Source: Escherichia coli
GTDB taxonomy: Bacteria > Pseudomonadota > Gammaproteobacteria > Enterobacterales > Enterobacteriaceae
Reading direction: 5' to 3' (one strand)
NCBI RefSeq assembly: GCF_036507355.1
Contig: NZ_AP027877.1
Length of the DNA: 64,000 nucleotides
Part shown: piece after piece, positions 15,440 to 62,673 of the stretch
Layout of the letters: the number at the start of each line of letters is the position of its first letter
How positions within the stretch are numbered: position 1 is the stretch's first letter
Notes under the pieces: generated by a model
The model's database searches: none
What the model saw: only the letters and a program-made list of their open reading frames with translations
Told to the model about the DNA's origin: nothing
Translations under genes and position numbers: made by a program

Positions 15440-15445
15440 TAATTT

Positions 15446-30085: not shown

Positions 30086-30093
30086 GGTTAGCG

Positions 30094-30124
30094 GCCCTCT
30101 TCGTGGGAAGAGGGCTATTTTGTC
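30094..30124. terminator. Bidirectional rho-independent terminator between ggt and yrhB
   Basis: Hairpin gccctcttc-gtgg-gaagagggc flanked by T/A tracts. Confidence 0.75.
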
Positions 30125-30407
30125 AGGGCAAGCCGAAGGTAGCCTTTTTTATTTCGTAATCCTGTAGATATTCTTCCAGCGGCTTTGCCGTTCCCAGAGA
30201 ATGAATTTCACCACTGTCTTTATCAATAATAAAAGGTGCGTTACCAGCTAAGCGCGCGGCCTCATCTCCAGTTTCGAGAAATTCTCGTGCTTCGAAACAG
30301 AAATACCAGCCCTGGCTAAAGCGTCCATGTAGAGTAATGACGACCGGGAGATCTGCATCATCAAGGTAATGGTTCGCTTTCGCGAATGCGTCGTGATAAG
30401 TAATTAT
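30123..30407 (-). CDS. yrhB: YrhB homolog (93 codons read from sequence); expected initiator position is ATA, not ATG
   Basis: Minus-strand translation ITYHDAFAKANHYLDDADLPVVITLHGRFSQGWYFCFEAREFLETGDEAARLAGNAPFIIDKDSGEIHSLGTAKPLEEYLQDYEIKKATFGLP; not in the ORF track because there is no ATG/GTG/TTG before the upstream in-frame stop. Confidence 0.55.
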   Translation of the reverse strand: MITYHDAFAKANHYLDDADLPVVITLHGRFSQGWYFCFEAREFLETGDEAARLAGNAPFIIDKDSGEIHSLGTAKPLEEYLQDYEIKKATFGLP

Positions 30408-30604
30408 AATTATAATAAATATTATTGTTGAGTGTTATATTATTATTCCTGTGTGATACATTGAGCAAAGGCGCGTTCATCTTCGTCAAAGATATTATTA
30501 AATGCTGGTTTTGAAAAAAGTTCATCGGATAAGATATAGTCACGAAATAAGTATCTGCTAATATTTTGTGATTTTTTTCAGAACGTCGAACGGGATTTTC
30601 TTAT

Positions 30605-30769
30605 TTAAGATATCAGAATCTTATGATTCGGGTAAAATTCTAAATAAATCAACATGTCACTAAAATCATCATAGCCATTAGCTATTTCGGCTAAAATAGA
30701 GACTACATGTCTTCGGTCCATCTCACTTAAGGAGTGTAGTTCCGTTGTAAGTTTTTCCATAGCTTGCAT
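30605..30769 (-). CDS. Possible small ORF (54 aa)
   Basis: ATG..TAA ORF read by hand: MQAMEKLTTELHSLSEMDRRHVVSILAEIANGYDDFSDMLIYLEFYPNHKILIS; AT-rich; below the track length cutoff. Confidence 0.25.
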   Translation of the reverse strand: MQAMEKLTTELHSLSEMDRRHVVSILAEIANGYDDFSDMLIYLEFYPNHKILIS

Positions 30770-30854
30770 TGCTAAATTTCGAACAAGGAATTTTCTGGTG
30801 GTAATCTCTAAAAAGATGGTATGGTTTACAATGATTTTTGTTTCCTTTTGATTA

Positions 30855-31349
30855 TTATGAACAACTGTCCATGATTTCGTTTAAGAATGAAGAGAAATCA
30901 CTAAACGAACTGAATATATTTTCTGTGCCAATATTATCTCTAATTTCAAAAAAGTTACTTTTAATGTCATAAGTAAATATTGAAATGCTATCATCCCCGA
31001 TCACTAACCGTTCTTGTAGATCAGGGTTTATGAAATCATCATTATTTCTATAAAATTCATTTACGGCAAAAAGGTTTTTAACTGAAGGTTCTGGAATCGA
31101 GAGGCTAAATAATCGTAATCCATTAACTTCGAATCCATCCATTGCTCTTAAAAAAGTAAGATAATCAGGTTGATTCTTAAAAAGAATACTAACTTCATTA
31201 CATAACTTCTCCAGGCAATTAGTTGAATTAGAATTAAATTCTATTTGGATTATACTTTCAATAAATGATTCCTTGAGCGGTGCTTCAAATGGATAGTCTA
31301 AATCATTCATCATTTTTATTAATTTGTTTATTTGGGTTTTAGTCATCAT
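30855..31349 (-). CDS. Putative immunity protein (YrhA-like), translationally coupled to the upstream Hcp-HNH gene (164 aa)
   Basis: Start ATG overlaps the stop of the HNH reading frame (ATGA); AT-rich, acidic small protein typical of immunity genes. Confidence 0.6.
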   Translation of the reverse strand: MMTKTQINKLIKMMNDLDYPFEAPLKESFIESIIQIEFNSNSTNCLEKLCNEVSILFKNQPDYLTFLRAMDGFEVNGLRLFSLSIPEPSVKNLFAVNEFYRNNDDFINPDLQERLVIGDDSISIFTYDIKSNFFEIRDNIGTENIFSSFSDFSSFLNEIMDSCS

Positions 31350-32524
31350 TTTGTGGGTTCCATAATATTTTTCATGGGAGGATAAATTGAGCCAGATGGA
31401 ATGGCCCAGGGAGTGATTTTACTTTCACCTACTAATATTCCCTTAGCTATTCGTGATTGCATGTTAGTAAAAACTTTATGATATGGTTCGTTTTCGATTA
31501 ATACTAAATTTTCGAAATCATTAGTACCACCATCATCTAGAGATAGTTTATGGTGAACATTATAATTTAGAGGAACATAGCCCTTTCTCATTCTTAAAAG
31601 GTCTTCGGCGTTGAATCTTCCAGATGCTTCGGAGGTTTTTGCAAGTTTGATAAGAAAATTTTTTCTTACAGTTTTGTTAAACTCCTTTCGTAAGTTAGCT
31701 AAGTCTTTTGAAGGTCTCTTAATGTATATTATTTATATTATGTCTATGCCATCAAGAAGTTTTTGTTGACCTCTAAGTTTGCCTAAGTAACTATTTATTT
31801 CTGTATATGTATCAACTCTAGAACGCTTTGTTAAAAGAATAGATGCTGTTGCTATCGCTATGCCCGCTGTTTTTTCATTTAGTATTTGATCATAGCCTTT
31901 GATTGCATCTCCACCCAGTTTTTCCGCAGTATCTCTGAATCCTTCAATGTTCCCATTGTATACGCCACCAGCAGCAAGTAGCCTGCCAACAGCTTTGCTG
32001 TTTAACGTTTTGAAACGATTATTTGTTTGGTTTTTTGAATTTGGTAAAAACAAACGGTTATAATTTTCAGGGAGTGCCAAATAGCTGAACTCGGTATTTG
32101 CGATAAGATGTTGACAGAGGATAAATTCATAACTAACAGTTATTGTTTCTGTATCCAGTTGATTTTCAATGATCTGATGATGAATAGCCGATAAAAAAGC
32201 GCCTCTTAGTTGTATATAATAATACTTTTCCCATCTGCCAAATCTATTGATTCTATAAAAGTCAAATCCCATAAATAATTGCTCATTATTGTTAATGGAA
32301 TTAATAAGTAATGGAGTGCTTTTATCAATTAATTTACAAAATGTTATACCCTGTAACTGTGAACCAAGCCCCGTATTAGTAATGCTATTTGCGAGTGAGA
32401 ATGTAAATATTTCATTCTCATGCCCGCTCTGCCAGCGATTACCTATAGATTCAGTAGTCCCACAACCTGCGGAGATGCTTCCTTGTTGTTCTCCCGTTAC
32501 TGTCAGGTAAACAATATTACTCAT
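31346..32524 (-). pseudogene. yhhZ: Hcp-domain protein with C-terminal HNH nuclease (YhhZ-like Hcp-ET toxin), interrupted by an in-frame TAA
   Basis: ORFs 31733..32524 (263 aa, Hcp-like N-terminus) and 31346..31591 (HNH motif NYNVHHKLSLDDGGTNDFENLVLIENEPYH) are in the same frame, separated by one TAA at 31733..31735; the full span is 393 codons. Confidence 0.7.
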
Positions 32525-32760
32525 CCCTGAAAAGTCCTTTTATGGCATGCTATTTTATCAATGGCACTATTATGCTTGTTAATTGTTATTTATTTACTCC
32601 AGGAAATTGTAGGCGTATATATTAAAAAATAAAATATTACACTTTAGGAAGTAATTATGAGGTAAATCTCAATATATTTATTGGGAAAATAAATATATTA
32701 AAGGAAGGTATGCCGATTTTGAATGACACCCTTTTTCCATCTCAGAAAAAGGGCACTATC

Positions 32761-33249
32761 TTACTTCACCCGCGCCATATAATACGCATCGACATATTCA
32801 CCATTACGCAATGCGTACTTCTTACCAGTCCCTTCAATTTCAAAGCCGTATTTTTTATAGACCTTAATTGCCGGGGCGTTATCGACAAACACGGTTAGTT
32901 CAATGCGATCTACCCGCAACCAGTTGTCGCACATTTCAATCATCTCTCGCATAAGGGCGCTGGCGACGCCGCGATTCTTCCAACGGGAGTCGACACAGAT
33001 ACCAAAATCGGCAACATGACTGCGGCGTGGGCGCTGTTGCACGTCAATGGTGAGATGACCCACGACGTCTCCATCAATACAGGCGACGAGTTGCTTGATG
33101 CCGGGACGATCGGCGAGTCGCTCCTGCCACATATGATCGGAAGGATGAGGCACCTGTAGTGTGTTGTAATACACCTCCGGCTGGGCGTGAATCTGCCTGA
33201 TGGCCTCGTAATCGCGCGTTTCAGCATGGCGTATCACTATCTCACTCAT
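32761..33249 (-). CDS. yhhY: GNAT N-acetyltransferase YhhY (162 aa)
   Basis: ORF 32761..33327 trimmed to MSEIVIRHAETRDYEAIRQIHA. Confidence 0.9.
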   Translation of the reverse strand: MSEIVIRHAETRDYEAIRQIHAQPEVYYNTLQVPHPSDHMWQERLADRPGIKQLVACIDGDVVGHLTIDVQQRPRRSHVADFGICVDSRWKNRGVASALMREMIEMCDNWLRVDRIELTVFVDNAPAIKVYKKYGFEIEGTGKKYALRNGEYVDAYYMARVK

Positions 33250-33346
33250 TCCTTTGTCCTCTTTGGGGGAAATGTCCCTTTCAACATCATTGACTTTCGA
33301 ATGCGAGTCAAATGCATTTTTTTGCAAAAAGTGTTGGACAAGTGCG

Positions 33347-33365
33347 AATGAGAATGATTATTATT
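33347..33365 (+). promoter_or_regulatory. Fur box overlapping the ryhB promoter
   Basis: aatgagaatgattattatt resembles the Fur consensus GATAATGATAATCATTATC, immediately upstream of the RyhB start. Confidence 0.6.
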
Positions 33366-33370
33366 GTCTC

Positions 33371-33466
33371 GCGATCAGGAAGACCCTCGCGGAGAACCTG
33401 AAAGCACGACATTGCTCACATTGCTTCCAGTATTACTTAGCCAGCCGGGTGCTGGCTTTTTTTTTT
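33371..33466 (+). ncRNA. ryhB: RyhB iron-responsive small RNA
   Basis: gcgatcaggaagaccctcgcggagaacctgaaagcacgacattgctcacattgcttccag...gccagccgggtgctggc plus T-tract terminator, matching my memory of RyhB; in the yhhY-yhhX spacer. Confidence 0.9.
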
Positions 33467-33582
33467 GATCTTTCGTTCTCAATTTATCCACGGGAGTGCT
33501 TGTGTTCGTTATGCGCACTCCAGTAGGAACCACGCCCGCTTTGCGCTAAGGTGTAAATAACCACCTTAAAAAGGACGAAATT

Positions 33583-34620
33583 ATGGTCATCAACTGCGCC
33601 TTTATTGGCTTCGGCAAAAGCACCACCCGTTACCATCTGCCGTATGTACTTAACCGCAAGGATAGCTGGCATGTCGCGCATATTTTTCGTCGCCATGCGA
33701 AGCCGGAAGAACAGGCTCCCATTTATTCCCATATCCATTTCACCAGCGATCTCGACGAAGTGCTAAACGATCCCGATGTTAAGCTGGTTGTTGTCTGCAC
33801 CCATGCGGATAGCCACTTCGAGTACGCGAAGCGCGCGCTGGAAGCCGGGAAAAATGTGCTGGTCGAAAAACCGTTCACTCCGACGCTTGCGCAGGCGAAA
33901 GAGCTGTTTGCTCTGGCGAAAAGTAAAGGGCTGACCGTCACGCCATATCAGAATCGTCGCTTTGATTCCTGCTTCCTGACGGCGAAAAAAGCGATTGAAA
34001 GCGGCAAGCTGGGAGAGATTGTCGAAGTGGAAAGCCATTTTGACTATTACCGCCCGGTGGCAGAAACCAAACCTGGGCTGCCGCAGGATGGCGCGTTCTA
34101 TGGCCTTGGTGTGCATACGATGGACCAGATTATTTCTCTATTCGGTCGCCCGGATCACGTCGCTTATGACATCCGCAGCCTGCGCAATAAAGCCAATCCT
34201 GACGATACTTTCGAAGCGCAACTGTTTTATGGCGATCTAAAAGCCATCGTCAAAACCAGCCATCTGGTGAAAATCGATTATCCGAAATTTATCGTTCACG
34301 GTAAGAAAGGTTCGTTTATTAAATACGGTATCGACCAGCAGGAAACCAGCCTGAAGGCTAATATTATGCCGGGCGAACCGGGATTCGCAGCGGATGATTC
34401 GGTCGGTGTGCTGGAGTATGTCAATGACGAGGGCGTGACGGTCAGAGAAGAGATGAAGCCGGAGATGGGCGATTACGGGCGCGTTTATGATGCGTTGTAT
34501 CAAACCATCACCCACGGTGCGCCAAATTACGTCAAGGAATCTGAAGTTCTTACGAATCTGGAAATCCTTGAACGCGGATTCGAGCAAGCCTCTCCCTCCA
34601 CAGTGATTCTCGCGAAGTAA
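33583..34620 (+). CDS. yhhX: Gfo/Idh/MocA-family oxidoreductase YhhX (345 aa)
   Basis: 345 aa; N-terminal Rossmann motif. Confidence 0.92.
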   Translation: MVINCAFIGFGKSTTRYHLPYVLNRKDSWHVAHIFRRHAKPEEQAPIYSHIHFTSDLDEVLNDPDVKLVVVCTHADSHFEYAKRALEAGKNVLVEKPFTPTLAQAKELFALAKSKGLTVTPYQNRRFDSCFLTAKKAIESGKLGEIVEVESHFDYYRPVAETKPGLPQDGAFYGLGVHTMDQIISLFGRPDHVAYDIRSLRNKANPDDTFEAQLFYGDLKAIVKTSHLVKIDYPKFIVHGKKGSFIKYGIDQQETSLKANIMPGEPGFAADDSVGVLEYVNDEGVTVREEMKPEMGDYGRVYDALYQTITHGAPNYVKESEVLTNLEILERGFEQASPSTVILAK

Positions 34621-34742
34621 GTTTGATGGCCCCTCGAATAGTTCAATTTTTTTGAACAGAGGGGTCAATTTTCACCCTCTATCATCCCAGGCAGATCGGG
34701 TCCACACTAAGCCCATCGAAATCATTCAGGGGGCGAATACAA

Positions 34743-35438
34743 ATGATCTACTTACGCAAAGCAAATGAACGTGGTCATGCAAATCATGGCTGGCTGGACT
34801 CCTGGCATACTTTCTCTTTTGCCAACTATTACGATCCGAACTTTATGGGCTTCTCCGCGCTGCGCGTGATTAACGACGACGTGATTGAAGCAGGGCAGGG
34901 CTTCGGCACTCACCCGCATAAAGATATGGAAATTTTGACCTACGTGCTGGAAGGTACTGTTGAGCACCAGGACAGCATGGGCAATAAAGAGCAGGTTCCG
35001 GCGGGTGAGTTCCAGATTATGAGTGCTGGTACGGGTATTCGTCACTCAGAGTACAACCCAAGCAGCACCGAGCGTCTGCATCTGTATCAGATCTGGATCA
35101 TGCCTGAAGAAAACGGTATTACGCCGCGTTATGAACAGCGTCGCTTCGATGCCGTACAGGGCAAACAGCTGGTGCTCTCGCCGGATGCGCGAGATGGTTC
35201 ATTGAAAGTGCACCAGGATATGGAACTGTACCGCTGGGCGTTGCTGAAAGATGAGCAGTCGGTGCATCAGATTGCCGCTGAACGCCGCGTCTGGATCCAG
35301 GTGGTGAAAGGCAATGTCACCATTAACGGCGTGAAAGCCTCGACCAGCGATGGTCTGGCAATCTGGGATGAGCAGGCAATCTCCATCCATGCGGATAGCG
35401 ACAGCGAAGTGTTACTGTTCGATCTGCCGCCGGTTTAA
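34743..35438 (+). CDS. yhhW: Pirin-like quercetin 2,3-dioxygenase YhhW (231 aa)
   Basis: 231 aa; cupin His motifs (HPHKDMEIL). Confidence 0.92.
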   Translation: MIYLRKANERGHANHGWLDSWHTFSFANYYDPNFMGFSALRVINDDVIEAGQGFGTHPHKDMEILTYVLEGTVEHQDSMGNKEQVPAGEFQIMSAGTGIRHSEYNPSSTERLHLYQIWIMPEENGITPRYEQRRFDAVQGKQLVLSPDARDGSLKVHQDMELYRWALLKDEQSVHQIAAERRVWIQVVKGNVTINGVKASTSDGLAIWDEQAISIHADSDSEVLLFDLPPV

Positions 35439-35661
35439 AGCTCAACGGCATCTTTGAAGCCTGCCTTTTTGCAGGCTTCCTCGCTCGCTCCGGTCGCGTG
35501 CTGATGTACGCTTCCGGGGGGTTGCCGCGTCGTTAGCACAATGCGATACAATTGATTTAGTGTATATCTAATAATTGTAAACAAGCACTGTTTTCCCCGG
35601 GAAGGTTCTGATGCGTCCGTGTTAAACTAAGAGAATCTATCTCTTTTGTACCTTCAGGACG

Positions 35662-36657
35662 ATGAAAAAGAAAAGACCCGTACTTCAGGATGTGGCTGAC
35701 CGTGTAGGCGTGACCAAAATGACGGTCAGCCGTTTTTTACGCAACCCGGAGCAGGTTTCCGTCGCTCTACGCGGCAAGATTGCCGCGGCTCTTGATGAAC
35801 TGGGCTATATTCCCAATCGTGCGCCCGATATCCTCTCTAACGCCACCAGCCGGGCGATTGGCGTCCTGTTACCTTCTCTCACCAACCAGGTTTTCGCGGA
35901 AGTATTACGCGGAATCGAAAGCGTCACCGACGCGCACGGTTATCAGACCATGCTGGCGCACTACGGTTATAAACCGGAAATGGAGCAAGAACGCCTCGAA
36001 TCCATGCTCTCCTGGAATATCGACGGACTTATCCTCACCGAACGTACGCACACGCCGCGCACCTTAAAGATGATTGAAGTGGCGGGGATCCCGGTGGTGG
36101 AGTTGATGGACAGCCAGTCGCCGTGTCTCGATATCGCCGTCGGTTTTGATAACTTTGAAGCGGCACGCCAGATGACCACAGCCATTATTGCTCGCGGGCA
36201 TCGCCACATTGCCTATCTCGGCGCACGTCTCGACGAACGTACTATCATCAAACAGAAGGGATACGAACAGGCGATGCTGGATGCAGGCCTGGTGCCATAT
36301 AGCGTGATGGTTGAGCAATCTTCTTCTTACTCTTCCGGTATTGAACTGATTCGCCAGGCACGGCGGGAATATCCGCAGCTGGATGGCGTGTTCTGTACTA
36401 ATGATGATCTGGCGGTCGGCGCGGCGTTTGAATGTCAGCGTCTGGGGTTGAAAGTTCCTGACGATATGGCGATTGCCGGTTTCCACGGTCATGACATTGG
36501 CCAGGTGATGGAGCCACGGTTGGCGAGCGTGCTGACGCCGCGTGAGCGGATGGGCAGTATTGGCGCTGAACGCCTGCTGGCGCGTATTCGTGGCGAATCT
36601 GTGACACCGAAAATGTTAGATTTAGGTTTCACCTTGTCACCGGGCGGATCTATTTAA
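35662..36657 (+). CDS. gntR: Gluconate repressor GntR, LacI family (331 aa)
   Basis: N-terminal HTH (VTKMTVSRFL), LacI-type periplasmic-binding fold. Confidence 0.95.
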   Translation: MKKKRPVLQDVADRVGVTKMTVSRFLRNPEQVSVALRGKIAAALDELGYIPNRAPDILSNATSRAIGVLLPSLTNQVFAEVLRGIESVTDAHGYQTMLAHYGYKPEMEQERLESMLSWNIDGLILTERTHTPRTLKMIEVAGIPVVELMDSQSPCLDIAVGFDNFEAARQMTTAIIARGHRHIAYLGARLDERTIIKQKGYEQAMLDAGLVPYSVMVEQSSSYSSGIELIRQARREYPQLDGVFCTNDDLAVGAAFECQRLGLKVPDDMAIAGFHGHDIGQVMEPRLASVLTPRERMGSIGAERLLARIRGESVTPKMLDLGFTLSPGGSI

Positions 36658-36736
36658 GCCCACAAATTTGAAGTAGCTCACACTTATACACTTAAGGCAC
36701 GGATGGATATTGCTTCTGATATTGTCCGGTCGGACA

Positions 36737-36765
36737 ATGTTACCGATAACAGTTACCCGTAACAT
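36737..36765 (+). promoter_or_regulatory. Putative GntR operator upstream of gntK
   Basis: Inverted repeat atgttaccgataacagttacccgtaacat. Confidence 0.6.
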
Positions 36766-36795
36766 TTTTAATTCTTGTATTGTGGGGGCACCACT

Positions 36796-37323
36796 TTGAG
36801 CACGACTAACCATGATCACCACATTTACGTCTTGATGGGCGTATCGGGCAGCGGCAAATCTGCGGTCGCCAGTGAAGTGGCGCATCAACTTCATGCCGCG
36901 TTTCTTGATGGCGATTTCCTCCATCCACGGCGCAATATCGAAAAAATGGCGTCTGGCGAACCACTGAATGACGACGATCGCAAACCGTGGTTGCAGGCGC
37001 TGAACGACGCCGCGTTTGCTATGCAGCGCACTAATAAAGTGTCGCTGATCGTCTGTTCTGCATTGAAAAAACACTATCGCGACTTGCTGCGTGAAGGTAA
37101 TCCGAATCTCTCTTTCATCTACCTGAAAGGCGATTTTGATGTGATTGAAAGCCGCCTGAAAGCGCGCAAAGGCCATTTCTTTAAAACCCAAATGTTGGTA
37201 ACGCAGTTTGAAACGCTGCAGGAGCCGGGTGCGGACGAAACCGATGTACTGGTGGTAGATATCGATCAACCGCTGGAAGGTGTTGTGGCAAGCACCATTG
37301 AGGTTATTAAAAAAGGCAAATAA
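36796..37323 (+). CDS. gntK: Gluconokinase GntK (175 aa, probable TTG start)
   Basis: ORF 36775..37323; start set at TTG giving MSTTNHDHHIYVLMGVSGSGKSAV (P-loop). Confidence 0.88.
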   Translation: MSTTNHDHHIYVLMGVSGSGKSAVASEVAHQLHAAFLDGDFLHPRRNIEKMASGEPLNDDDRKPWLQALNDAAFAMQRTNKVSLIVCSALKKHYRDLLREGNPNLSFIYLKGDFDVIESRLKARKGHFFKTQMLVTQFETLQEPGADETDVLVVDIDQPLEGVVASTIEVIKKGK

Positions 37324-37326
37324 GTA

Positions 37327-38667
37327 GTGACTACATTAACGCTTGTTTTAACAGCAGTAGGGTCTGTTTTACTGCTGCTGTTTTTAGTCATGAAGGCGCG
37401 TATGCACGCTTTCCTGGCTTTGATGGTGGTGTCCATGGGGGCTGGCCTTTTTTCTGGTATGCCGCTCGATAAAATCGCAGCGACGATGGAAAAAGGGATG
37501 GGAGGCACCCTCGGCTTCCTGGCGGTGGTTGTCGCCCTGGGAGCCATGTTTGGCAAGATCTTACATGAAACCGGCGCAGTCGATCAGATTGCCGTCAAAA
37601 TGCTCAAATCCTTCGGTCACAGCCGCGCGCATTATGCCATCGGCCTTGCGGGGCTGGTCTGTGCGCTACCGCTGTTCTTTGAAGTGGCGATTGTTCTGCT
37701 GATTAGCGTTGCTTTCTCAATGGCGCGCCACACCGGTACGAACCTGGTGAAGCTGGTAATCCCATTATTCGCAGGCGTGGCGGCAGCGGCGGCGTTCCTG
37801 GTGCCAGGGCCAGCGCCAATGCTGCTGGCATCGCAGATGAACGCCGATTTTGGCTGGATGATCCTGATTGGCCTGTGTGCGGCAATTCCGGGAATGATTA
37901 TTGCCGGGCCGCTGTGGGGTAACTTCATCAGCCGTTACGTTGAGCTGCATATTCCTGACGACATCAGCGAGCCGCATCTCGGCGAAGGCAAAATGCCGTC
38001 CTTCGGATTCAGCCTGTCGCTGATCCTGCTGCCGCTGGTGCTGGTGGGGCTGAAAACCATTGCCGCGCGTTTTGTGCCGGAAGGCTCTACCGCTTACGAA
38101 TGGTTCGAGTTTATTGGTCATCCGTTTACCGCGATTCTGGTTGCTTGTCTGGTAGCGATTTATGGCCTGGCAATGCGTCAGGGCATGCCAAAAGACAAAG
38201 TGATGGAGATTTGCGGTCACGCGCTGCAACCGGCGGGGATCATTCTGCTGGTGATTGGTGCGGGCGGCGTGTTCAAACAGGTGCTGGTTGACTCTGGCGT
38301 AGGTCCGGCACTGGGCGAAGCGTTAACCGGCATGGGCCTGCCGATTGCTATCACCTGCTTCGTGCTGGCCGCTGCAGTGCGCATCATTCAGGGGTCTGCC
38401 ACCGTTGCCTGTTTAACGGCGGTGGGGCTGGTGATGCCGGTCATTGAACAACTGAACTATTCCGGTGCGCAAATGGCGGCGCTGTCGATTTGTATCGCCG
38501 GTGGTTCAATTGTTGTCAGCCACGTTAACGATGCCGGTTTCTGGTTGTTCGGTAAATTTACCGGCGCGACCGAAGCCGAAACGCTGAAAACCTGGACCAT
38601 GATGGAAACCATCCTCGGCACTGTCGGTGCCATCGTTGGGATGATTGCGTTCCAGCTGTTGAGTTAA
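37327..38667 (+). CDS. gntU: Low-affinity gluconate transporter GntU (446 aa)
   Basis: 446-aa GntP-family permease. Confidence 0.95.
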   Translation: MTTLTLVLTAVGSVLLLLFLVMKARMHAFLALMVVSMGAGLFSGMPLDKIAATMEKGMGGTLGFLAVVVALGAMFGKILHETGAVDQIAVKMLKSFGHSRAHYAIGLAGLVCALPLFFEVAIVLLISVAFSMARHTGTNLVKLVIPLFAGVAAAAAFLVPGPAPMLLASQMNADFGWMILIGLCAAIPGMIIAGPLWGNFISRYVELHIPDDISEPHLGEGKMPSFGFSLSLILLPLVLVGLKTIAARFVPEGSTAYEWFEFIGHPFTAILVACLVAIYGLAMRQGMPKDKVMEICGHALQPAGIILLVIGAGGVFKQVLVDSGVGPALGEALTGMGLPIAITCFVLAAAVRIIQGSATVACLTAVGLVMPVIEQLNYSGAQMAALSICIAGGSIVVSHVNDAGFWLFGKFTGATEAETLKTWTMMETILGTVGAIVGMIAFQLLS

Positions 38668-38723
38668 GTTTGTTCGCCCGGTAGTTGTGACGCTACCGGG
38701 CTCTTTTCGAAAAACTCTCCTCG

Positions 38724-39317
38724 TTACCCCTTCATCCACATTCGAATGCCGTCGAGGAACATCTGGGTTGCCATCATCACCAGAATCAATCCCATCAGGC
38801 GTTCAAGTGCGTTCACCCCTTTCTCGCCCAGCAGACGTAAAAATAGCGAAGACTGTAGCAGGATGACAAAGGTGCCGCCCCAGGCCAGCAGCAGAGCAAT
38901 CACCAGATGTCCCATCTGATTCGGGTACTGATGAGACAACAACATCAGCGTGGCGAGAATAGTTGGCCCGGCGACCAGCGGAATTGCCAGCGGCACGATA
39001 AATGGCTCTTCACCTGCCGGAAGCCCGCTGCTATTTCCTGAAGCGCTGGGGAAAATCATCTTAATGGCAATTAGAAACAGAATGATGCCGCCAGAAATGG
39101 AGACGGTTTCTGCTCGTAGGCTGAGAAATGCCAGAATTTTCTCACCCGCAAACAGGAACACCAGCATCACCAGGAGAGCAATAAGCAACTCTCGCACCAT
39201 GATTGCCCGCCGTCTTTTCGGTTCAGTATGTTTCAGTACGGACATGAAAATAGGTAGGTTTCCGAGCGGATCCATAATCAGGATCAATAAAACTGCTGCA
39301 GAAATGATTTCATTCAT
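38724..39317 (-). CDS. yhgN: MarC-family membrane protein YhgN (197 aa)
   Basis: 197-aa multi-TM ORF. Confidence 0.9.
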   Translation of the reverse strand: MNEIISAAVLLILIMDPLGNLPIFMSVLKHTEPKRRRAIMVRELLIALLVMLVFLFAGEKILAFLSLRAETVSISGGIILFLIAIKMIFPSASGNSSGLPAGEEPFIVPLAIPLVAGPTILATLMLLSHQYPNQMGHLVIALLLAWGGTFVILLQSSLFLRLLGEKGVNALERLMGLILVMMATQMFLDGIRMWMKG

Positions 39318-39508
39318 AACTCAAATTCCCTGATAATTGCCGCGGACTTTCTGCGTGCTAACAAAGCAGGATAAGTCGCATTACTGATGGCTTCGCTATC
39401 ATTGATTAATTTCACTTGCGACTTTGGCTGCTTTTTGTATGGTGAAAGATGTGCCAAGAGGAGACCGGCACATTTATACAGCACACATCTTTGCAGGAAA
39501 AAACGCTT

Positions 39509-40612: not shown

Positions 40613-40884
40613 TCTTTATTCATTAAATCTGGGGCGCGATGCCGCCCCTGTTAGTGCGTAATACAGGAGTAAGCGCAGATGTTTCATGATTTACCGGGAG
40701 TTAAATAGAGCATTGGCTATTCTTTAAGGGTGGCTGAATACATGAGTATTCACAGCCTTACCTGAAGTGAGGACGACGCAGAGAGGATGCACAGAGTGCT
40801 GCGCCGTTCAGGTCAAAAAAATGTCACAACCAGAAGTCAAAAATCCAATTGGATGGGGTGACACAATAAAACAGGAAGACAAGC

Positions 40885-45041: not shown

Positions 45042-45058
45042 TAAAAAAGGAGTTAGTC

Positions 45059-46354
45059 ATGGTTAGTTTAGAGAAGAACGATCACTTAATGTTGGCGCGC
45101 CAGCTGCCATTGAAATCTGTTGCCCTGATACTGGCGGGAGGACGTGGTACCCGCCTGAAGGATTTAACCAATAAGCGAGCAAAACCGGCCGTACACTTCG
45201 GCGGTAAGTTCCGCATTATCGACTTTGCGCTGTCTAACTGCATCAACTCCGGGATCCGTCGTATGGGCGTGATCACCCAGTACCAGTCTCACACTCTGGT
45301 GCAGCACATTCAGCGCGGCTGGTCATTCTTCAATGAAGAAATGAACGAGTTTGTCGATCTGCTGCCAGCGCAGCAGAGAATGAAAGGGGAAAACTGGTAT
45401 CGCGGCACCGCAGATGCTGTCACCCAAAACCTCGACATTATCCGTCGTTATAAAGCGGAATACGTGGTGATCCTGGCGGGCGACCATATCTACAAGCAAG
45501 ACTACTCGCGTATGCTTATCGATCACGTCGAAAAAGGCGCACGTTGCACCGTTGCTTGTATGCCAGTACCGATTGAAGAAGCCTCCGCATTTGGCGTTAT
45601 GGCGGTTGATGAGAACGATAAAATTATCGAATTCGTTGAAAAACCTGCTAACCCACCGTCAATGCCGAACGATCCGAGCAAATCTCTGGCGAGTATGGGT
45701 ATCTACGTCTTTGACGCCGACTATCTGTATGAACTGCTGGAAGAAGACGATCGCGATGAGAACTCCAGCCATGACTTTGGCAAAGATTTGATTCCCAAGA
45801 TCACCGAAGCCGGTCTGGCCTATGCGCACCCGTTTCCGCTCTCTTGCGTACAATCCGACCCGGATGCCGAGCCGTACTGGCGCGATGTGGGTACGCTGGA
45901 AGCTTACTGGAAAGCGAACCTCGATCTGGCCTCTGTGGTGCCGGAGCTGGATATGTACGATCGCAATTGGCCAATTCGCACCTACAATGAATCATTACCG
46001 CCAGCGAAATTCGTGCAGGATCGCTCCGGTAGCCACGGGATGACCCTTAACTCACTGGTTTCCGGCGGTTGTGTGATCTCCGGTTCGGTGGTGGTGCAGT
46101 CCGTTCTGTTCTCGCGCGTTCGCGTGAATTCATTCTGCAACATTGATTCCGCCGTATTGTTACCGGAAGTATGGGTAGGTCGCTCGTGCCGTCTGCGCCG
46201 CTGCGTCATTGATCGTGCTTGTGTTATTCCGGAAGGCATGGTGATTGGTGAAAACGCAGAGGAAGATGCACGTCGTTTCTATCGTTCAGAAGAAGGCATC
46301 GTGCTGGTAACGCGCGAAATGCTACGGAAGTTAGGGCATAAACAGGAGCGATAA
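45059..46354 (+). CDS. glgC: Glucose-1-phosphate adenylyltransferase GlgC (431 aa)
   Basis: ORF 45023..46354 trimmed to [33 protein letters not shown]. Confidence 0.95.
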
Positions 46355-47787
46355 TGCAGGTTTTACATGTATGTTCAGAGATGTTCCCGCTGCTTAAAAC
46401 CGGCGGTCTGGCTGATGTTATTGGGGCATTACCCGCAGCACAAATCGCAGACGGCGTTGACGCTCGCGTACTGTTGCCTGCATTTCCCGATATTCGCCGT
46501 GGCGTGACCGATGCGCAGGTAGTATCCCGTCGTGATACCTTCGCCGGGCATATCACGCTGTTGTTCGGTCATTACAACGGGGTTGGCATATACCTGATTG
46601 ACGCGCCGCATCTCTATGATCGTCCGGGAAGCCCGTATCACGATACCAACTTATTTGCCTATACCGACAACGTATTGCGTTTTGCGCTACTGGGGTGGGT
46701 TGGGGCAGAAATGGCCAGTGGGCTTGACCCATTCTGGCGTCCTGATGTGGTGCATGCGCACGACTGGCATGCAGGCCTTGCGCCTGCGTATCTGGCGGCG
46801 CGCGGGCGTCCGGCGAAGTCGGTGTTTACTGTGCACAACCTGGCCTATCAAGGCATGTTTTATGCACATCACATGAATGACATCCAATTGCCATGGTCAT
46901 TCTTTAATATTCATGGGCTGGAATTCAACGGACAAATCTCTTTCCTGAAGGCCGGTCTGTACTATGCCGATCACATTACGGCGGTCAGTCCAACCTACGC
47001 TCGCGAGATCACCGAACCGCAGTTTGCCTACGGTATGGAAGGTCTGTTGCAACAGCGTCACCGTGAAGGGCGTCTTTCCGGCGTACTGAACGGCGTGGAC
47101 GAGAAAATCTGGAGTCCAGAGACGGACTTACTATTGGCCTCGCGTTACACCCGCGATACGTTGGAAGATAAAGCGGAAAATAAGCGCCAGTTACAAATCG
47201 CAATGGGGCTTAAGGTTGACGATAAAGTGCCGCTTTTTGCAGTGGTGAGCCGTCTGACCAGCCAGAAAGGCCTCGACCTGGTGCTGGAGGCCTTACCGGG
47301 TCTTCTGGAGCAGGGCGGGCAGCTGGCGCTACTCGGCGCGGGCGATCCGGTGCTGCAGGAAGGTTTCCTTGCGGCGGCAGCGGAATACCCCGGCCAGGTG
47401 GGCGTTCAGATTGGCTATCACGAAGCATTTTCGCATCGCATTATGGGCGGTGCGGACGTCATTCTGGTGCCCAGCCGTTTTGAACCGTGCGGCTTAACGC
47501 AACTTTATGGATTGAAGTACGGTACGCTGCCGTTAGTGCGGCGCACCGGTGGGCTTGCTGATACGGTTTCTGACTGTTCTCTTGAGAACCTTGCAGATGG
47601 CGTCGCCAGTGGGTTTGTCTTTGAAGATAGTAATGCCTGGTCGCTGTTACGGGCTATTCGACGTGCTTTTGTACTGTGGTCCCGTCCTTCACTGTGGCGG
47701 TTTGTGCAACGTCAGGCTATGGCAATGGATTTTAGCTGGCAGGTCGCGGCGAAGTCGTACCGTGAGCTTTACTATCGCTTGAAATAG
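46354..47787 (+). CDS. glgA: Glycogen synthase GlgA (477 aa)
   Basis: [22 protein letters not shown]. Confidence 0.97.
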
Positions 47788-50253
<2,466 letters not shown>

Positions 50254-50270
50254 TTTCACCAATAAATAGA

Positions 50271-50298
50271 ACGGGGCCAAAGGGTCCCGTTTTTTTTC
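50271..50298 (+). terminator. Rho-independent terminator after glgP
   Basis: Hairpin acggggcc-aaag-ggtcccgt then tttttttt. Confidence 0.75.
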
Positions 50299-50369
50299 GC
50301 CATCATTTCGGAAAAGTGTCCAGAAGGGGCAAGGGGACTCGGGGAGTATAATTTCGCCATTCAGAAAGA

Positions 50370-51887
50370 ATGGAAAGAATAATGCAAAACAGAAAATGGA
50401 TTTTGTCCTCGCTGGTAATGACTTTTTTCGGCATCCCCATACTGACGCAATTTTTGGCGGCGGTTGTTGCTATGCTGGGTGTCGGACTTGCCGGTATTAT
50501 TGAAGTTTGTAATATCCTTATCACGCCAACAATTTACCTTCTGCTCAACATTTTTATGCTGGCGCTGGGCGCATTAATGCTATTTTTCTCGGGGCGAGTA
50601 TGGGCAGGCGATAGTGCACCAGAAAAAAGAGAAATAGCCGTCTGGCGGCAATGCTTTTTTCTCTTACCCGCGCTATTAACCCTGGTTGGCTGGATAATCA
50701 CGCTACATCTGGCAGATTATCAATTTCGCCAGATGGGAGCTGGTTGGTTGGCAAACCTTATGCTTCCCTGGTTGGGCGTTTTTTTAGTCTCATTAGTGGG
50801 TGGTGAGTACTGGTGGATGGTCATTATTCCCGTTGGGGCGCATATCAGTTTTTCGCTGGGATACGCCTGGCCGACCAGATATCCTTTATCCGGCACGTCC
50901 GGACTACGTTGCCGTAACTTACTCCTGTTTCTACTTCTCTTACTTGGTATTGTCGCCGGGTATCAGGCCCATTTATATAAGCAGCAAAATCCTGGTGTCG
51001 GTGTACGCGAAAATATTGATATCTGGGCCTGGCGACCCGATAAACTCAATAATCGACTGACGCCGCTGCGTGGCAAACCGCAAATTCAGTTTAGGCAAAA
51101 CTGGCCGCGAATCGATGGCGCCACGGCTGCGTACCCAATTTATGCTTCTGCATTTTATGCATTAAGCGTAATACCAGAGGATTTTCACGTTTGGGATTAT
51201 CTGGAAAACTCTCGTACGCCAGAAGCATATAACAAAATCGTTAAGGGCGATGCTGATATTATTTTCGTGGCGCAACCTTCTGGTGGGCAAAAAAAACGTG
51301 CAAAGGAATCTGGTGTCACTTTGCTGTACACCCCCTTTGCCCGTGAAGCATTCGTTTTCATCGTCAATGCGGATAATCCGGTTAATTCCCTGACTGAACA
51401 ACAGGTGCGTGACATTTTCAGTGGTGCAATTACCAATTGGCGTACTGTTGGCGGTAACGATCAGGAGATCCAGACCTGGCAGCGCCCGGAAGACTCTGGC
51501 AGCCAGACAGTGATGCAATCACAGGTCATGAAAAATGTCCGCATGATCTCGCCGCAGGAAACGGAAGTGGCAAGCGTGATGGAGGGAATGATTAAAGTCG
51601 TTGCCGAATACCGTAATACAAACAACGCAATAGGCTATACCTTCCGCTATTACGCGACGCAAATGAATGCTGATAAAAATATAAAATTGCTAGCGATTAA
51701 CGATATTACACCGACGGCGGAAAACATTCGCAACGGCAAATATGCGTACATCGTCGATGCATTTATGGTAACGAGGGAAAATACGACGTCAGAGACACAA
51801 AAATTGGTGGAATGGTTTTTAACGCCGCAGGGGCAGAGTTTGGTGGAAGATGTGGGATATGTGCCGATGTATCCAACAATGGAATAA
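50370..51887 (+). CDS. Polytopic membrane domain fused to a PstS-like (PBP_like_2) substrate-binding domain (505 aa)
   Basis: About 200 aa with ~6 hydrophobic helices, then GATAAYPIYASAFYAL...SGSQTVM...IGYTFRYYA, which resembles PstS motifs. Confidence 0.7.
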   Translation: MERIMQNRKWILSSLVMTFFGIPILTQFLAAVVAMLGVGLAGIIEVCNILITPTIYLLLNIFMLALGALMLFFSGRVWAGDSAPEKREIAVWRQCFFLLPALLTLVGWIITLHLADYQFRQMGAGWLANLMLPWLGVFLVSLVGGEYWWMVIIPVGAHISFSLGYAWPTRYPLSGTSGLRCRNLLLFLLLLLGIVAGYQAHLYKQQNPGVGVRENIDIWAWRPDKLNNRLTPLRGKPQIQFRQNWPRIDGATAAYPIYASAFYALSVIPEDFHVWDYLENSRTPEAYNKIVKGDADIIFVAQPSGGQKKRAKESGVTLLYTPFAREAFVFIVNADNPVNSLTEQQVRDIFSGAITNWRTVGGNDQEIQTWQRPEDSGSQTVMQSQVMKNVRMISPQETEVASVMEGMIKVVAEYRNTNNAIGYTFRYYATQMNADKNIKLLAINDITPTAENIRNGKYAYIVDAFMVTRENTTSETQKLVEWFLTPQGQSLVEDVGYVPMYPTME

Positions 51888-52905
51888 CGCTCGAGAGAAA
51901 GGAATCAGCGAGACGAATAAATTCACCGGTGTTTTACTATTAGGCACGGCGTTACTGGCGGGATGTGTCGACCGGGAAGGGTACTATAACAGCGTCAGGG
52001 AAGAAGAGAGCCATGGACTGACGTCTCTGCGGGGGCAACCTGCATTACGTTACAGCGATGATTGGTCAAGATGGCCGAGAGTGTACGGCGCTACAGCCTT
52101 ATACCCGCTGTATGCCTCCGCGTATTATAAATTAGTACCCGAGCCAAAAGATAAGGATCGAACCTCGCTGGCCTGGCAGGCGTATGGTTTGCAGCAAACC
52201 CGAACAGCTGAAGCCTACGATAGTCTGATTAAAGGTTCCGCGACGGTTATTTTTGTTGCACAACCGTCGGAAGGACAGAAAAAACGTGCAGAAGAAGCGG
52301 GTGTTAAACTGAAATATACCGCTTTCGCCCGCGAAGCCTTTGTCTTTATCGTTGATATTAATAACCCGGTAAATTCTCTCTCTGAGCACCAGGTTAAAGA
52401 TATTTTTAGCGGCAAAACTAGCCGCTGGAATAAAGTAGGTGGTAGTGACGAACATATAAAAGTCTGGCAGCGCCCTGAAGATTCTGGAAGCCAAACGATT
52501 ATGAAGGGGTTGGTTATGCAAGACACCCCAATGCTGCCAGCTAAAAAATCCACTGTGATTGATCTTATGGGCGGTTTAATTACTGAAGTTGCCGACTATC
52601 AAAACACGCCATCTTCCATTGGGTACACCTTCCACTATTACGTCACTCGTATGAATGACAATATGCTCAAAATGCGCAAGCAGATTAAACTTTTGGCTAT
52701 AAATGGCGTTGCGCCTACCGAGGAAAATATCCGCAACGGCACTTATCCATACATTGTGGATGCCTATATGGTGACGCGTGAAAATCCCACGCCGGAAACG
52801 CAGAAATTTGTTGACTGGTTTATAAGTCAGCAGGGGCAACAGTTGGTAGAGGATGTGGGGTATGTGCCGCTGTATGAAGCATCCCCCGAATCATCAGGAC
52901 AATAA
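51850..52905 (+). CDS. PstS-like substrate-binding lipoprotein, paralog of the upstream gene's C-terminal domain (351 aa; start uncertain)
   Basis: Lipobox LLAGC; domain collinear with the 505-aa protein; start overlaps the upstream gene by 38 nt. Confidence 0.7.
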   Translation: MWDMCRCIQQWNNAREKGISETNKFTGVLLLGTALLAGCVDREGYYNSVREEESHGLTSLRGQPALRYSDDWSRWPRVYGATALYPLYASAYYKLVPEPKDKDRTSLAWQAYGLQQTRTAEAYDSLIKGSATVIFVAQPSEGQKKRAEEAGVKLKYTAFAREAFVFIVDINNPVNSLSEHQVKDIFSGKTSRWNKVGGSDEHIKVWQRPEDSGSQTIMKGLVMQDTPMLPAKKSTVIDLMGGLITEVADYQNTPSSIGYTFHYYVTRMNDNMLKMRKQIKLLAINGVAPTEENIRNGTYPYIVDAYMVTRENPTPETQKFVDWFISQQGQQLVEDVGYVPLYEASPESSGQ

Positions 52906-53442
52906 TGATGAATATAATCAGACTTTATATTTATCCGTTATTTCTCGGCTTTGTTATTGTGCCGTTGTTGGTGTGGCCGATGGTGGTTGCGCTGGCTGCT
53001 TGTATTATCACGCTGAGTTTTCTGGGGGAAATGCTGTTCTCAATCCCGCTCATGATCAGGCGTATTTCACTTCTGCAATTACAACTTTGGTTATCGGCTG
53101 AATATGCGCTTTTCTTCTGTGTAATGTGTTGCGTTGGTTGGCAATTTACTCGTAGAACTCAATCTGAATTGAAAAGCAGGCTCCATTGTTGGTTGGTATT
53201 CGCACCGGTCTATTTATGGTTGATCCTCTGGAATATCATTTTTTACATCGCGCCAGCGAAAATTGCGTTGCTGGAAAGTATCCGCAATTTCTTTCTGCTT
53301 GTTGTCTGGCTACCCCTGAATTTTTCGCCATTTTGGCCTCAGCCGTGGACGGATTTTATCGGTCCAATAAGCGCACAGTGAGGTAGCCTGAGTTTAACGG
53401 ACACTCCTTCCTGAAATAGAATGGCATCAGAAGGAGCTAATA

Positions 53443-53745
53443 ATGAGCAGAAAAACCCAACGTTACTCTAAAGAGTTCAAAGCCGAAGCTGTCAGAACGG
53501 TTCTTGAAAATCAACTTTCGATCAGTGAAGGCGCTTCCCGATTATCTCTTCCTGAAGGCACTTTAGGACAATGGGTTACCGCCGCCAGAAAAGGGCTCGG
53601 TACTCCTGGTTCCCGCACGGTGGCTGAACTGGAATCTGAAATTCTGCAACTGCGTAAGGCGTTAAATGAAGCTCGCCTTGAGCGAGATATATTAAAAAAA
53701 GCAACAGCGTATTTTGCACAGGAGTCGCTGAAAAATACGCGTTAA
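53443..53745 (+). CDS. IS3-family transposase OrfA (HTH, 100 aa)
   Basis: MSRKTQRYSKEFKAEAVRTV...; typical IS3 OrfA with leucine zipper. Confidence 0.85.
   Translation: MSRKTQRYSKEFKAEAVRTVLENQLSISEGASRLSLPEGTLGQWVTAARKGLGTPGSRTVAELESEILQLRKALNEARLERDILKKATAYFAQESLKNTR
53694..53701 (+). promoter_or_regulatory. Probable -1 programmed frameshift site (A6G) for the OrfAB transposase
   Basis: aaaaaaag near the 3-prime end of orfA, upstream of the orfB frame. Confidence 0.55.
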
Positions 53746-53780
53746 TCGAACAATGGCGACAACAATTTCCCATTGAAGCG

Positions 53781-54599
53781 ATGTGTCAGGTATTTGGTGT
53801 ATCCAGGAGCGGTTATTACAACTGGGTACAGCATGAACCCTCAGACAGAAAACAAAGTGATGAGCGGCTAAAACTGGAGATTAAGGTGGCACATATCCGC
53901 ACTCGCGAAACATATGGAACCCGGCGGCTCCAGACGGAGCTGGCAGAGAATGGCATCATCGTTGGTCGTGACCGACTGGCACGTCTTCGTAAGGAGCTAA
54001 GGCTACGCTGTAAGCAGAAACGCAAGTTCAGAGCGACTACGAACTCGAACCACAATCTGCCAGTTGCGCCAAATCTGCTGAACCAGACGTTCGCTCCTAC
54101 AGCACCAAATCAGGTCTGGGTGGCGGACCTGACGTATGTTGCCACACAGGAGGGATGGTTGTACCTCGCTGGCATCAAAGATGTTTATACGTGCGAAATT
54201 GTCGGCTACGCCATGGGAGAGCGCATGACAAAAGAGCTGACAGGTAAAGCCCTGTTTATGGCGCTCAGGAGCCAGCGCCCACCTGCCGGGCTAATCCACC
54301 ACTCTGATCGAGGTTCACAGTACTGCGCATACGATTACCGGGTCATACAGGAGCAGTTTGGTCTGAAAACATCAATGTCGCGTAAAGGTAACTGTTACGA
54401 CAACGCTCCGATGGAAAGCTTCTGGGGAACGCTGAAAAATGAGAGCCTGAGCCACTATCGTTTTAATAACCGGGATGAAGCCATCTCAGTAATACGGGAA
54501 TACATTGAGATTTTCTACAATCGTCAGCGTCGTCACTCTCGTCTGGGGAATATCTCCCCGGCAGCCTTCAGGGAAAAATATCATCAGATGGCTGCTTAA
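53781..54599 (+). CDS. IS3-family transposase OrfB (DDE integrase core); the true N-terminus is probably fused to OrfA by frameshifting
   Basis: 272-aa ORF with an rve-type integrase core. Confidence 0.85.
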   Translation: MCQVFGVSRSGYYNWVQHEPSDRKQSDERLKLEIKVAHIRTRETYGTRRLQTELAENGIIVGRDRLARLRKELRLRCKQKRKFRATTNSNHNLPVAPNLLNQTFAPTAPNQVWVADLTYVATQEGWLYLAGIKDVYTCEIVGYAMGERMTKELTGKALFMALRSQRPPAGLIHHSDRGSQYCAYDYRVIQEQFGLKTSMSRKGNCYDNAPMESFWGTLKNESLSHYRFNNRDEAISVIREYIEIFYNRQRRHSRLGNISPAAFREKYHQMAA

Positions 54600-54827
54600 A
54601 AAAAGAACAAATGGTAGTGTCCGCTATTGCCAGTACACCTCACAGCTTGGTTTTGCGTTGGGATATTATTGCCAGTGGCGCAGCAAAAATAGATGCCAGA
54701 TACGGAAGTGGAGTGAGTGGGGAACGTGCTTAAGTTTTGTTACGTTGGGTATGATGGCGTGGGCTTTGCGGTAATTCCCTGAATCAAAAAGTAGGTCAGA
54801 TTGTTGACAACGTGGCACTTTGTTCAT

Positions 54828-61653: not shown

Positions 61654-62673
<1,020 letters not shown>

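Follow-up and report, generated by a model that had tools for sequence, protein, structure and literature searches.

Does a handful of inactivated genes beside an insertion sequence mark an Escherichia coli strain as Shigella-like, that is, host-restricted and undergoing reductive evolution? The question is raised by a 64 kb stretch of E. coli DNA (hereafter the window), for which the initial annotation had described three independent inactivating events in non-core genes, an IS600-type element and intact housekeeping genes, and had read these together as the signature of such a lineage. The description stands: all three events were verified, they are mechanistically independent, and they strike accessory genes only. 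The Shigella-like inference drawn from them is not established. Pseudogenes and IS insertions in the two cassettes concerned, the yhhZ-yrhAB island and the cassette between glgP and glpD, are commonplace in E. coli, and the damage seen here is probably, in our estimate, decay of the routine, neutral kind that befalls dispensable accessory cassettes, in this case in a rare clone.

Lesions in two accessory cassettes

Lesions were checked by aligning the window to E. coli PapM-32-1, in which the locus is intact (98.9% identity). In the island next to ggt, yhhZ (tssD; 31346..32524, minus strand) encodes an evolved Hcp whose C-terminal part is an HNH nuclease of the His-Me finger type. Codon 264 of 392 has changed from GAA to TAA (E264*, with the TAA at 31733-31735) by a single coding-strand G>T at window position 31735, and the gene shows no indels in this alignment. 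What remains is a product of 263 residues that keeps the Hcp domain, while the HNH portion (ORF 31346-31591) is severed. A Pfam search of the intact ortholog finds T6SS_HCP (PF05638) at residues 18-139 (E=1.1e-12), a domain also present in the truncated product from the window, and a weak HNH match at residues 322-343 (E=0.006; 17.2 bits, below the 21.4-bit cut-off). With the codon-264 stop between them, Hcp and HNH are no longer joined in one polypeptide, and because the truncation precedes the HNH region only an Hcp-like stub is predicted to be producible from this allele. YhhZ, an Hcp-HNH effector, belongs to His-Me finger group 32 (PMC5714182) and to the 'evolved Hcps' (PMC2907695).

Directly downstream of yhhZ, and overlapping it, yrhA (30855..31349, minus strand; 164 residues) is presumed to be its immunity gene; it is intact, with no amino acid difference from the reference, and has no Pfam match. 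The small ORF yrhD (30605..30760, minus strand) is likewise intact. The second event affects yrhB (30123..30407, minus strand; 94 codons), an orphan immunity gene of the Imm35 family, whose start codon at 30405-30407 has changed from ATG to ATA through a single C>T at 30405. There is no usable in-frame ATG, GTG or TTG upstream or ahead of codon 93 to take its place. The intact ortholog matches Imm35 (PF15567, E=4e-23); with an ATA start and no alternative, the window has no translatable Imm35 ORF at this position.

The second cassette lies between glgP and glpD. Its first PstS-like gene (PBP_like_2; 50382..51887, plus strand) was considered as a possible start-loss lesion, since the first ATG of the reference is ATA here, but an adjacent ATG is kept and the gene is therefore counted as intact. 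The second, a PstS-like lipoprotein gene (51913..52905, plus strand), has its native start changed from ATG to ACG (51913-51915). In the reference this ATG is preceded by an AAGGA Shine-Dalgarno sequence, and the product starts MNKFTGVLLLGTALLAGC, with a lipobox. This gene is a probable fourth lesion, overlooked by the initial annotation.

It is followed by a 200-residue hydrophobic ORF with at least four hydrophobic 19-mers and no Pfam match, which is split after codon 158. The 5' part (52905..53381, plus strand) retains those 158 codons and ends in a TGA made by the first bases of the inserted element, and the last 42 codons are displaced to 54643..54774 (plus strand). The element itself (53379..54642, plus strand; 1,264 bp) has TG...CA ends, starts TGAGGTAGCC and ends ACACCTCA. 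It carries orfA (53443-53745, 100 residues) and, in the -1 frame relative to it, orfB (53781-54599, 272 residues); an A7 run near 53700 provides the A-rich slippery site. A 3-bp target duplication, CAG, stands at 53376-53378 and 54643-54645, a triplet that occurs only once at this site in the reference, which has no insertion. Over 1,263 bp the element is 100% identical to copies annotated as 'IS3-like element IS600 family transposase' on S. sonnei pINV and in E. coli. By length, ends, ORF frames, target duplication and identity alike, it is IS600, of the IS3 family, as had been proposed.

The remaining ~55 genes of the window align at reference length, begin with a start codon and are free of internal stops, so that the claim of intact housekeeping genes is borne out, the liv, ugp, gnt, glg, glp and rtc genes included. 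Indels near ryhB were considered as possible damage and found harmless, RyhB scoring 83 bits over its full model. The lesion load thus comes to three or four lesions in ~60 genes (four being ~7%), all of them in accessory loci.

Age of the lesions and placement of the source

No close relative of the source was found among 5,426 complete RefSeq E. coli genomes, where the best identity is 98.3-98.8%, and the window is not close to any of the complete EIEC genomes known in RefSeq. The source is closest to an O157:H7-like group: in a comparison whose genomes included no Shigella chromosome, the window groups with PapM-32-1, A30, GPT24-02 and O157:H7 at 1.0-1.2% divergence. Lineage-restricted protein alleles and exact matches to the source genome are all named Escherichia coli. 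The sole Shigella name among exact protein matches comes from FtsY, where the allele is the same as in S. dysenteriae Sd197 and is common to many E. coli contigs.

Exact protein matches did lead to draft assemblies of clonal relatives (GCA_905398585.1, GCA_021425525.1, GCA_016660925.1, SRR32181686, SRR17480487 and ERR3330519). The near-identical drafts share the yhhZ stop and the IS600 insertion, and in GCA_905398585.1 one contig halts at the left junction of IS600 while another is 100% identical to the window from 54566 outward, beginning 77 bp inside the right end of the element. The ACG at 51913 is also present in clonal relatives, where gene callers take an upstream ATG at 51850 or 51859. 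GCA_022725755.1 was considered as a further carrier of the insertion, but on alignment proved to be of a different lineage, with 97.7% identity and no insertion. Neither the IS600 junction nor the ACG allele occurs in any of the 5,426 complete genomes; IS600 as such, at 80% or more of its length, is present in 1,613 of them (30%).

The lesions differ in age, with the IS600 insertion, the ACG start and the yhhZ stop found clone-wide and the yrhB ATA in the source strain only. SRR32181686 has ATG in yrhB, and position 30405 is its sole difference from the window across 28733-32791. As ATA is also found in none of the 5,426 complete genomes, the change is private to the source strain, as judged from this one clonal relative covering the site and the complete genomes. 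The yhhZ stop has a wider distribution: the same GAA>TAA at codon 264, noted by PGAP as 'internal stop', occurs in two further E. coli, A30 and GPT24-02, at least one of them from baboon faeces (A30). Their yhhZ differs from that of the window at 4-5 positions per 1.2 kb, compared with 32-34 for K-12, and all three are of one haplotype family.

Within the clone, decay is ongoing, as yhhY, a GNAT acetyltransferase gene that is intact in the window (32761..33249, minus strand), has been struck in some relatives by an additional IS1 and by a nonsense mutation. The IS1 insertion has a 9-bp duplication, ATACGCATC, at 32783-32791, and the nonsense mutation is Q53* (33093 G>A). Near-identical isolates differ by the IS1 insertion, and two of six within-clone SNPs are null mutations, against ~5% expected for random coding SNPs. 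Together these hint at above-average IS activity and weak purifying selection. Contigs of the relatives around this region span 20-90 kb, with breaks about once per 50 kb, which suggests an intermediate, EIEC-like IS load (cf. PMC7373316). GlgP H684Y was considered as a sub-branch marker but is uninformative, as the identical protein is also found in unrelated lineages whose glgP-glpD cassette is different.

Ordinary baseline and competing explanations

How unusual is such a load? In the same ~40 kb of eight other E. coli, PGAP flags 0, 1, 1, 2, 0, 1, 1 and 2 pseudogenes, so that six of the eight ordinary strains sampled have at least one. Under a Poisson distribution with mean ~1 the probability of three or more is ~0.08, and three lesions are only marginally beyond chance; four in ~60 genes fall in the uppermost part of the sampled baseline (P ~0.03-0.1). 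The same loci are struck elsewhere. The yrhD ortholog is a pseudogene with an internal stop in O111:H8 2009C-3675 and in the canine strain UPEC957C, the latter having an internal stop in yhhY as well, and in O157:H7 the entire yhhZ-yrhA-yrhD-yrhB island is replaced. K-12 MG1655 has three lesions of its own in this stretch, namely the glpR pseudogene, an IS1E interrupting yrhA, and a deletion of the PstS-like cluster. Private SNPs show no raised nonsynonymous fraction: N/(N+S) is 0.11 (11/99), compared with 0.12-0.22 in four comparison strains and 0.08-0.45 in eight.

On the explanation we favour, with some reserve, both the orphan polymorphic-toxin island and the cassette with its PstS-like genes and hydrophobic ORF would be under relaxed selection; orphan immunity genes, like a toxin that has no secretion system dedicated to it, would be expendable. 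The GAA>TAA change would have stripped the HNH nuclease from the Hcp-HNH toxin in an allele that is probably older than the clone and circulating in related E. coli; IS600 transposition, with its 3-bp duplication, would account for the truncated hydrophobic ORF, and ATG>ACG for the lost start of the neighbouring lipoprotein gene, both of them fixed in the clone. The ATG>ATA change would have silenced yrhB in the source strain only. We infer that these lesions reflect mutation and drift, and not a genome-wide reductive programme of the Shigella type.

The reading proposed initially, in which the source comes from a host-restricted lineage resembling Shigella or EIEC and the lesions are a local sample of genome-wide IS expansion and reduction, we consider unlikely, though it accounts for a number of observations. 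The clone is rare and has no relative among the complete RefSeq E. coli, none of the 5,426 genomes has any of three of its four lesions (two of the three first described, and the ACG), IS1 and IS600 insertions are polymorphic or fixed within it, some relatives show further decay in yhhY and contigs broken at 20-90 kb, the chromosome is small (4.64 Mb), and its FtsY allele is that of Sd197. We took as reductive a lineage in which at least 5% of CDS are pseudogenes, core metabolic genes included. Against the reading, the core metabolic genes of the window are intact and N/(N+S) is not raised, lineage-restricted alleles are all labelled E. coli and IS600 is common in that species, the window holds one IS where three to six would be expected, K-12 has the same number of lesions in the stretch, and the yhhZ stop recurs in two other E. 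coli, including a commensal baboon isolate. Since ordinary E. coli, K-12 among them, are similarly damaged at the same loci, the pattern is no marker of a Shigella-like lineage. A commensal best match with intact versions of these genes, which had been named as evidence to the contrary, was found in part: among complete genomes the best match is from baboon stool and has these genes intact, but at only 98.8% identity it represents a different lineage. A narrower proposal, which we hold to be rather doubtful, is that the source and its few draft relatives form an unrecognised, recently bottlenecked clone near phylogroup E in an early, EIEC-like phase of gene decay and of IS1 and IS600 expansion; if so, it would be a host-restricted lineage at its very beginning, ahead of any large-scale reduction of the genome.

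Selection for the losses themselves, through an advantage in inactivating the Hcp-HNH toxin and immunity genes or the surface lipoprotein and membrane cassette, seems improbable to us. Possible benefits would be freedom from self-intoxication or escape from phage or immune recognition, and it is true that the lesions cluster in two cassettes, that yhhY of the relatives was struck twice (IS1 and Q53*), that null mutations are overrepresented among the six within-clone SNPs, and that the same genes have repeatedly become pseudogenes in unrelated strains. Recurrent loss is, however, expected equally under relaxed selection, a second strike on an already dead gene is a signature of neutrality, and the numbers are tiny. 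For the yrhB start alone, an error in sequencing or in the consensus of the source assembly would also explain the observation, as this is the sole lesion without an independent assembly, with ATG in SRR32181686 and no ATA among the complete genomes. Such an error would surprise us, as the change is a clean substitution outside any homopolymer and a G:C>A:T transition like the other three private SNPs of the strain in this region, which lie in well-conserved genes and give no specific ground for doubt.

The lesions carry little biological weight, and their practical use is as markers for surveillance: the IS600 junction (53376-53381) and the ACG at 51913 for the clone, and T at 30405 for the strain itself. 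A local pseudogene count is unusable for calling a Shigella-like lineage.

Comparison with known systems

The nearest parallel for the yhhZ lesion is in A30 and GPT24-02, which share the codon-264 change and the haplotype family with the window. They differ from it in that yrhB and its neighbours are intact within the ~40 kb fetched from each, a segment that excludes the PstS-like cassette and the IS600 site, and in that their gntU and yhgN are separated by a RecQ/DprA insertion, which is absent from the window. Evolved Hcps of the YhhZ type combine an N-terminal Hcp with a C-terminal, degenerate HNH and small immunity-type genes downstream (YrhA, and YrhB as Imm35). The window has the same arrangement, except that its protein stops ahead of the HNH region.

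Decay in Shigella and EIEC resembles what is seen here in that IS600 (and IS1 in the relatives) interrupts genes alongside nonsense and start-loss pseudogenes, and in that insertion sites vary between strains inside one clone. Five IS have expanded in Shigella and EIEC, IS1 and IS600 among them, and IS copies number 229-348 per Shigella chromosome and 71-164 in EIEC (PMC7373316). Unlike Shigella, with ~5-9 IS per 100 kb (Hawkey et al. 2020, PMC7373316), the window has one in 64 kb, or ~1.6 per 100 kb, where the Shigella density predicts three to six (P of one or fewer, 0.02-0.17). No core metabolic gene is struck, dN/dS-type signals are not raised, and the organism is labelled E. coli. K-12 MG1655 offers a comparison within the species: it too has an IS in the yhhZ-yrhA-yrhB island and has lost the PstS-like cluster between glgP and glpD, with a yzgL remnant among its pseudogenes at these loci. 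The means differ, with IS1 in yrhA in place of the yhhZ stop and a deletion in place of the IS600 insertion, yet K-12, which is not host-restricted, shows three lesions across this stretch of ~40 kb.

Accessory cassettes within an intact chromosomal stretch

The window is a 64-kb stretch of E. coli chromosome. Its left half runs from yhhT through zntA, ftsYEX, rpoH, liv, ugp and ggt, followed by the yrhB-yrhD-yrhA-yhhZ-yhhY island. To the right of yhhY lie ryhB, yhhX, yhhW, gntRKU, yhgN, asd and glgBXCAP, then a cassette of two PstS-like genes and a 200-aa ORF, and finally glpD-glpEGR-rtcRBA-malT. Among 5,426 complete RefSeq E. coli genomes, top identity was 98.8% for 30090-54800 and 98.3% for 1-25000. 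Alignment to PapM-32-1, an E. coli with an intact locus, confirmed the three inactivating events described in the initial annotation (a stop in yhhZ, a lost start in yrhB and an IS insertion, here IS600), as well as its description of the housekeeping genes as intact: all remaining genes in the window, including those of liv, ugp, gnt, glg, glp and rtc, keep reference length and start and contain no internal stops. The RyhB sRNA (33400-33464, 83 bits) is likewise intact despite adjacent 1-bp indels.

Several intervals vary among strains. An intact AtaR-AtaT type II toxin-antitoxin pair (15173-15973), its AtaT differing from that of PapM-32-1 by four residues, sits between livJ and panM. The tusA-zntA interval carries a 420-bp segment (4511-4930) missing from PapM-32-1 and found in other E. 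coli such as F2_81, with REP-like sequence and, at 4585-4893, a 102-aa hydrophobic ORF predicted by gene callers in relatives. The window is without the RecQ/DprA insertion that A30, GPT24-02, O157:H7 and UPEC957C carry between gntU and yhgN (38668-38723), and without the GNAT/DUF1778 toxin-antitoxin pair of PapM-32-1 and O157:H7 between rtcA and malT (62663-62711).

Lesions in the two cassettes

In yhhZ (tssD; 31346-32524, minus strand) a single substitution at 31735 converts codon 264 of 392 from GAA to TAA, leaving a 263-aa Hcp stub without the nuclease part. In the intact protein the Hcp domain is clear (PF05638, aa 18-139, E=1e-12) and the HNH match (aa 322-343) weak; the literature places YhhZ both among the 'evolved Hcps', its HNH being degenerate (PMC2907695), and in His-Me finger group 32 (PMC5714182). 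The yrhA gene, directly downstream, is intact. In yrhB (30123-30407, minus strand) a C>T change at 30405 turns ATG into ATA. No other in-frame ATG, GTG or TTG lies between the upstream stop and this codon, or within the gene ahead of codon 93. YrhB belongs to the Imm35 family of immunity proteins (E=4e-23), and the island is thus an orphan polymorphic toxin/immunity cassette.

Allele distribution was determined with 55-mers centred on each SNP, the 28-base megablast word forcing every match across the allele; in a local control the wild type gave no match. The yhhZ stop is carried by two of the 5,426 genomes, those of the baboon isolate A30 and of GPT24-02, both labelled 'internal stop' by PGAP, and the yrhB ATA allele in none. 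The window, PapM-32-1 and A30 form one yhhZ haplotype family, with 4-5 differences, versus 32-34 to K-12, C and O111. Because the A30 carrier belongs to this family, the stop probably predates the clone comprising the window strain and its near-identical draft relatives, and circulates in related E. coli otherwise undamaged in the fetched stretch.

The IS600 element (53379-54642; 1,264 bp, TG...CA ends, orfA and orfB in -1 frame relation) is 100% identical to annotated IS600, as the earlier assignment to this type had it, and is flanked by a 3-bp CAG duplication. Its junction is found in none of the 5,426 genomes. It interrupts the 200-aa ORF after codon 158; that this ORF is a membrane gene, as it had been termed, is plausible from its at least four hydrophobic 19-residue segments, and it has no Pfam match. 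A match to the ES036/CssrF sRNA lies just downstream (54862-54904).

A probable fourth lesion, putative in its functional effect, is a change of the native ATG of the second PstS-like gene to ACG (51913-51915), clone-wide and absent from all 5,426 complete E. coli genomes. Elsewhere in E. coli this ATG follows AAGGA, and the encoded MNKFTGVLLLGTALLAGC is a lipoprotein signal with lipobox. Gene callers mask the change by choosing an upstream ATG within the preceding gene, which would place a charged extension of 18 or 21 residues ahead of the signal peptide.

The first PstS-like gene and glpD (50000-52000 and 55000-56000) diverge by ~5-6% from PapM-32-1, versus 0.1-1% in flanking genes, a pattern that resembles a recombination mosaic around the variable glgP-glpD cassette. 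O111:H8 and a B2 strain have other genes in place of the second PstS-like gene and the 200-aa ORF, and in the B2 strain a fimbrial operon substitutes for the first PstS-like gene.

A rare clone and its draft relatives

In a comparison of shared genes (15.9 kb), the window differs by 1.0-1.2% from PapM-32-1, A30, GPT24-02 and O157:H7; K-12, C and O111 lie at 1.4-1.5% and a B2 strain at 2.6%. Its alleles of ZntA, UgpC, Ggt, GlgB, GlgX, GlpD, RtcR and others are mostly matched under the DDBJ protein ids BED20491-BED20544, all named Escherichia coli, and by exact-protein matching the lineage-restricted alleles occur in only ~6-10 contigs of the whole collection. Most alleles, those of ZntA and UgpC included, occur in the clone alone; the neighbouring FtsY protein (9332-10828) is the same allele as in S. 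dysenteriae Sd197 (ABB63586.1) and in many E. coli contigs.

Four drafts (GCA_905398585.1, GCA_021425525.1, SRR32181686 and SRR17480487) are separated from the window by 0-4 SNPs per 17-22 kb, and the rare ZntA allele recurs in GCA_016660925.1 and ERR3330519. All four aligned relatives have the ACG start and a contig ending at the left IS600 junction; a second contig of GCA_905398585.1 extends 77 bp into the right end. At least three (GCA_905398585.1, SRR32181686, SRR17480487) share the yhhZ stop. Over 28733-32791 SRR32181686 differs from the window solely in having ATG in yrhB, and this lesion is therefore private to the window strain.

Other damage is absent from the window strain. Contigs of SRR32181686, SRR17480487, GCA_021425525.1 and GCA_016660925.1 share one break point in the yhhY 3' end, and those of both SRA assemblies terminate in IS1 ends around a 9-bp duplication, ATACGCATC (32783-32791), while SRR32181686 and GCA_021425525.1 carry yhhY Q53* (33093). 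All six within-clone SNPs in ~24 kb (30405, 33093, 38093, 43613, 45835, 49855; two synonymous, two missense, two null) are G:C>A:T transitions, which may reflect mutational bias in a sample too small to say more.

Stepwise decay versus reductive evolution

The best explanation, and one we consider reasonably likely, is ordinary decay of two dispensable accessory cassettes, which would proceed stepwise, probably by neutral mutation, through events of differing age. The initial annotation had instead read the pattern as one expected of a Shigella-like or host-restricted E. coli lineage; it is not diagnostic of a Shigella-like one. Reductive evolution of a Shigella or EIEC kind is possible but improbable, and contradicted in part. 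What speaks for it are hints from ~150 kb of sequence rather than genome-wide: the clone is rare, with no complete RefSeq relative among 5,426 genomes; it alone carries three of the four lesions; both IS1 and IS600 are active within it; and relatives' contigs break about every 50 kb around the region, an intermediate, EIEC-like spacing. However, IS600 at 80% length or more is present in 1,613 of the 5,426 E. coli genomes, one strain having at least 40 copies. Shigella chromosomes carry 229-348 IS, up to 9.26 per 100 kb; for EIEC lineages the figure is 71-164, and the E. coli median is 32 (Hawkey et al., PMC7373316). At the density of Shigella, finding no more than one IS in 64 kb would be unlikely (P(<=1) 0.02-0.17); at that of E. 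coli or EIEC it is unremarkable. Housekeeping genes, compared over 26 kb, show no nonsynonymous excess among private SNPs (N/(N+S)=0.11, inside or under the range of comparison strains), and the metabolic genes are undamaged.

The lesions can serve as clone and strain markers. Damage to these cassettes is commonplace in E. coli. Across eight other E. coli, PGAP flags 0, 1, 1, 2, 0, 1, 1 and 2 pseudogenes in the corresponding ~40 kb, among yhhZ, yrhA, yrhD, yhhY, glpR and a RecQ gene, and three lesions against a mean of ~1 give P ~0.08. K-12 MG1655 itself carries three lesions in the same stretch: glpR is a pseudogene, yrhA is interrupted by IS1E, and the PstS-like cluster has been lost, leaving the yzgL remnant.
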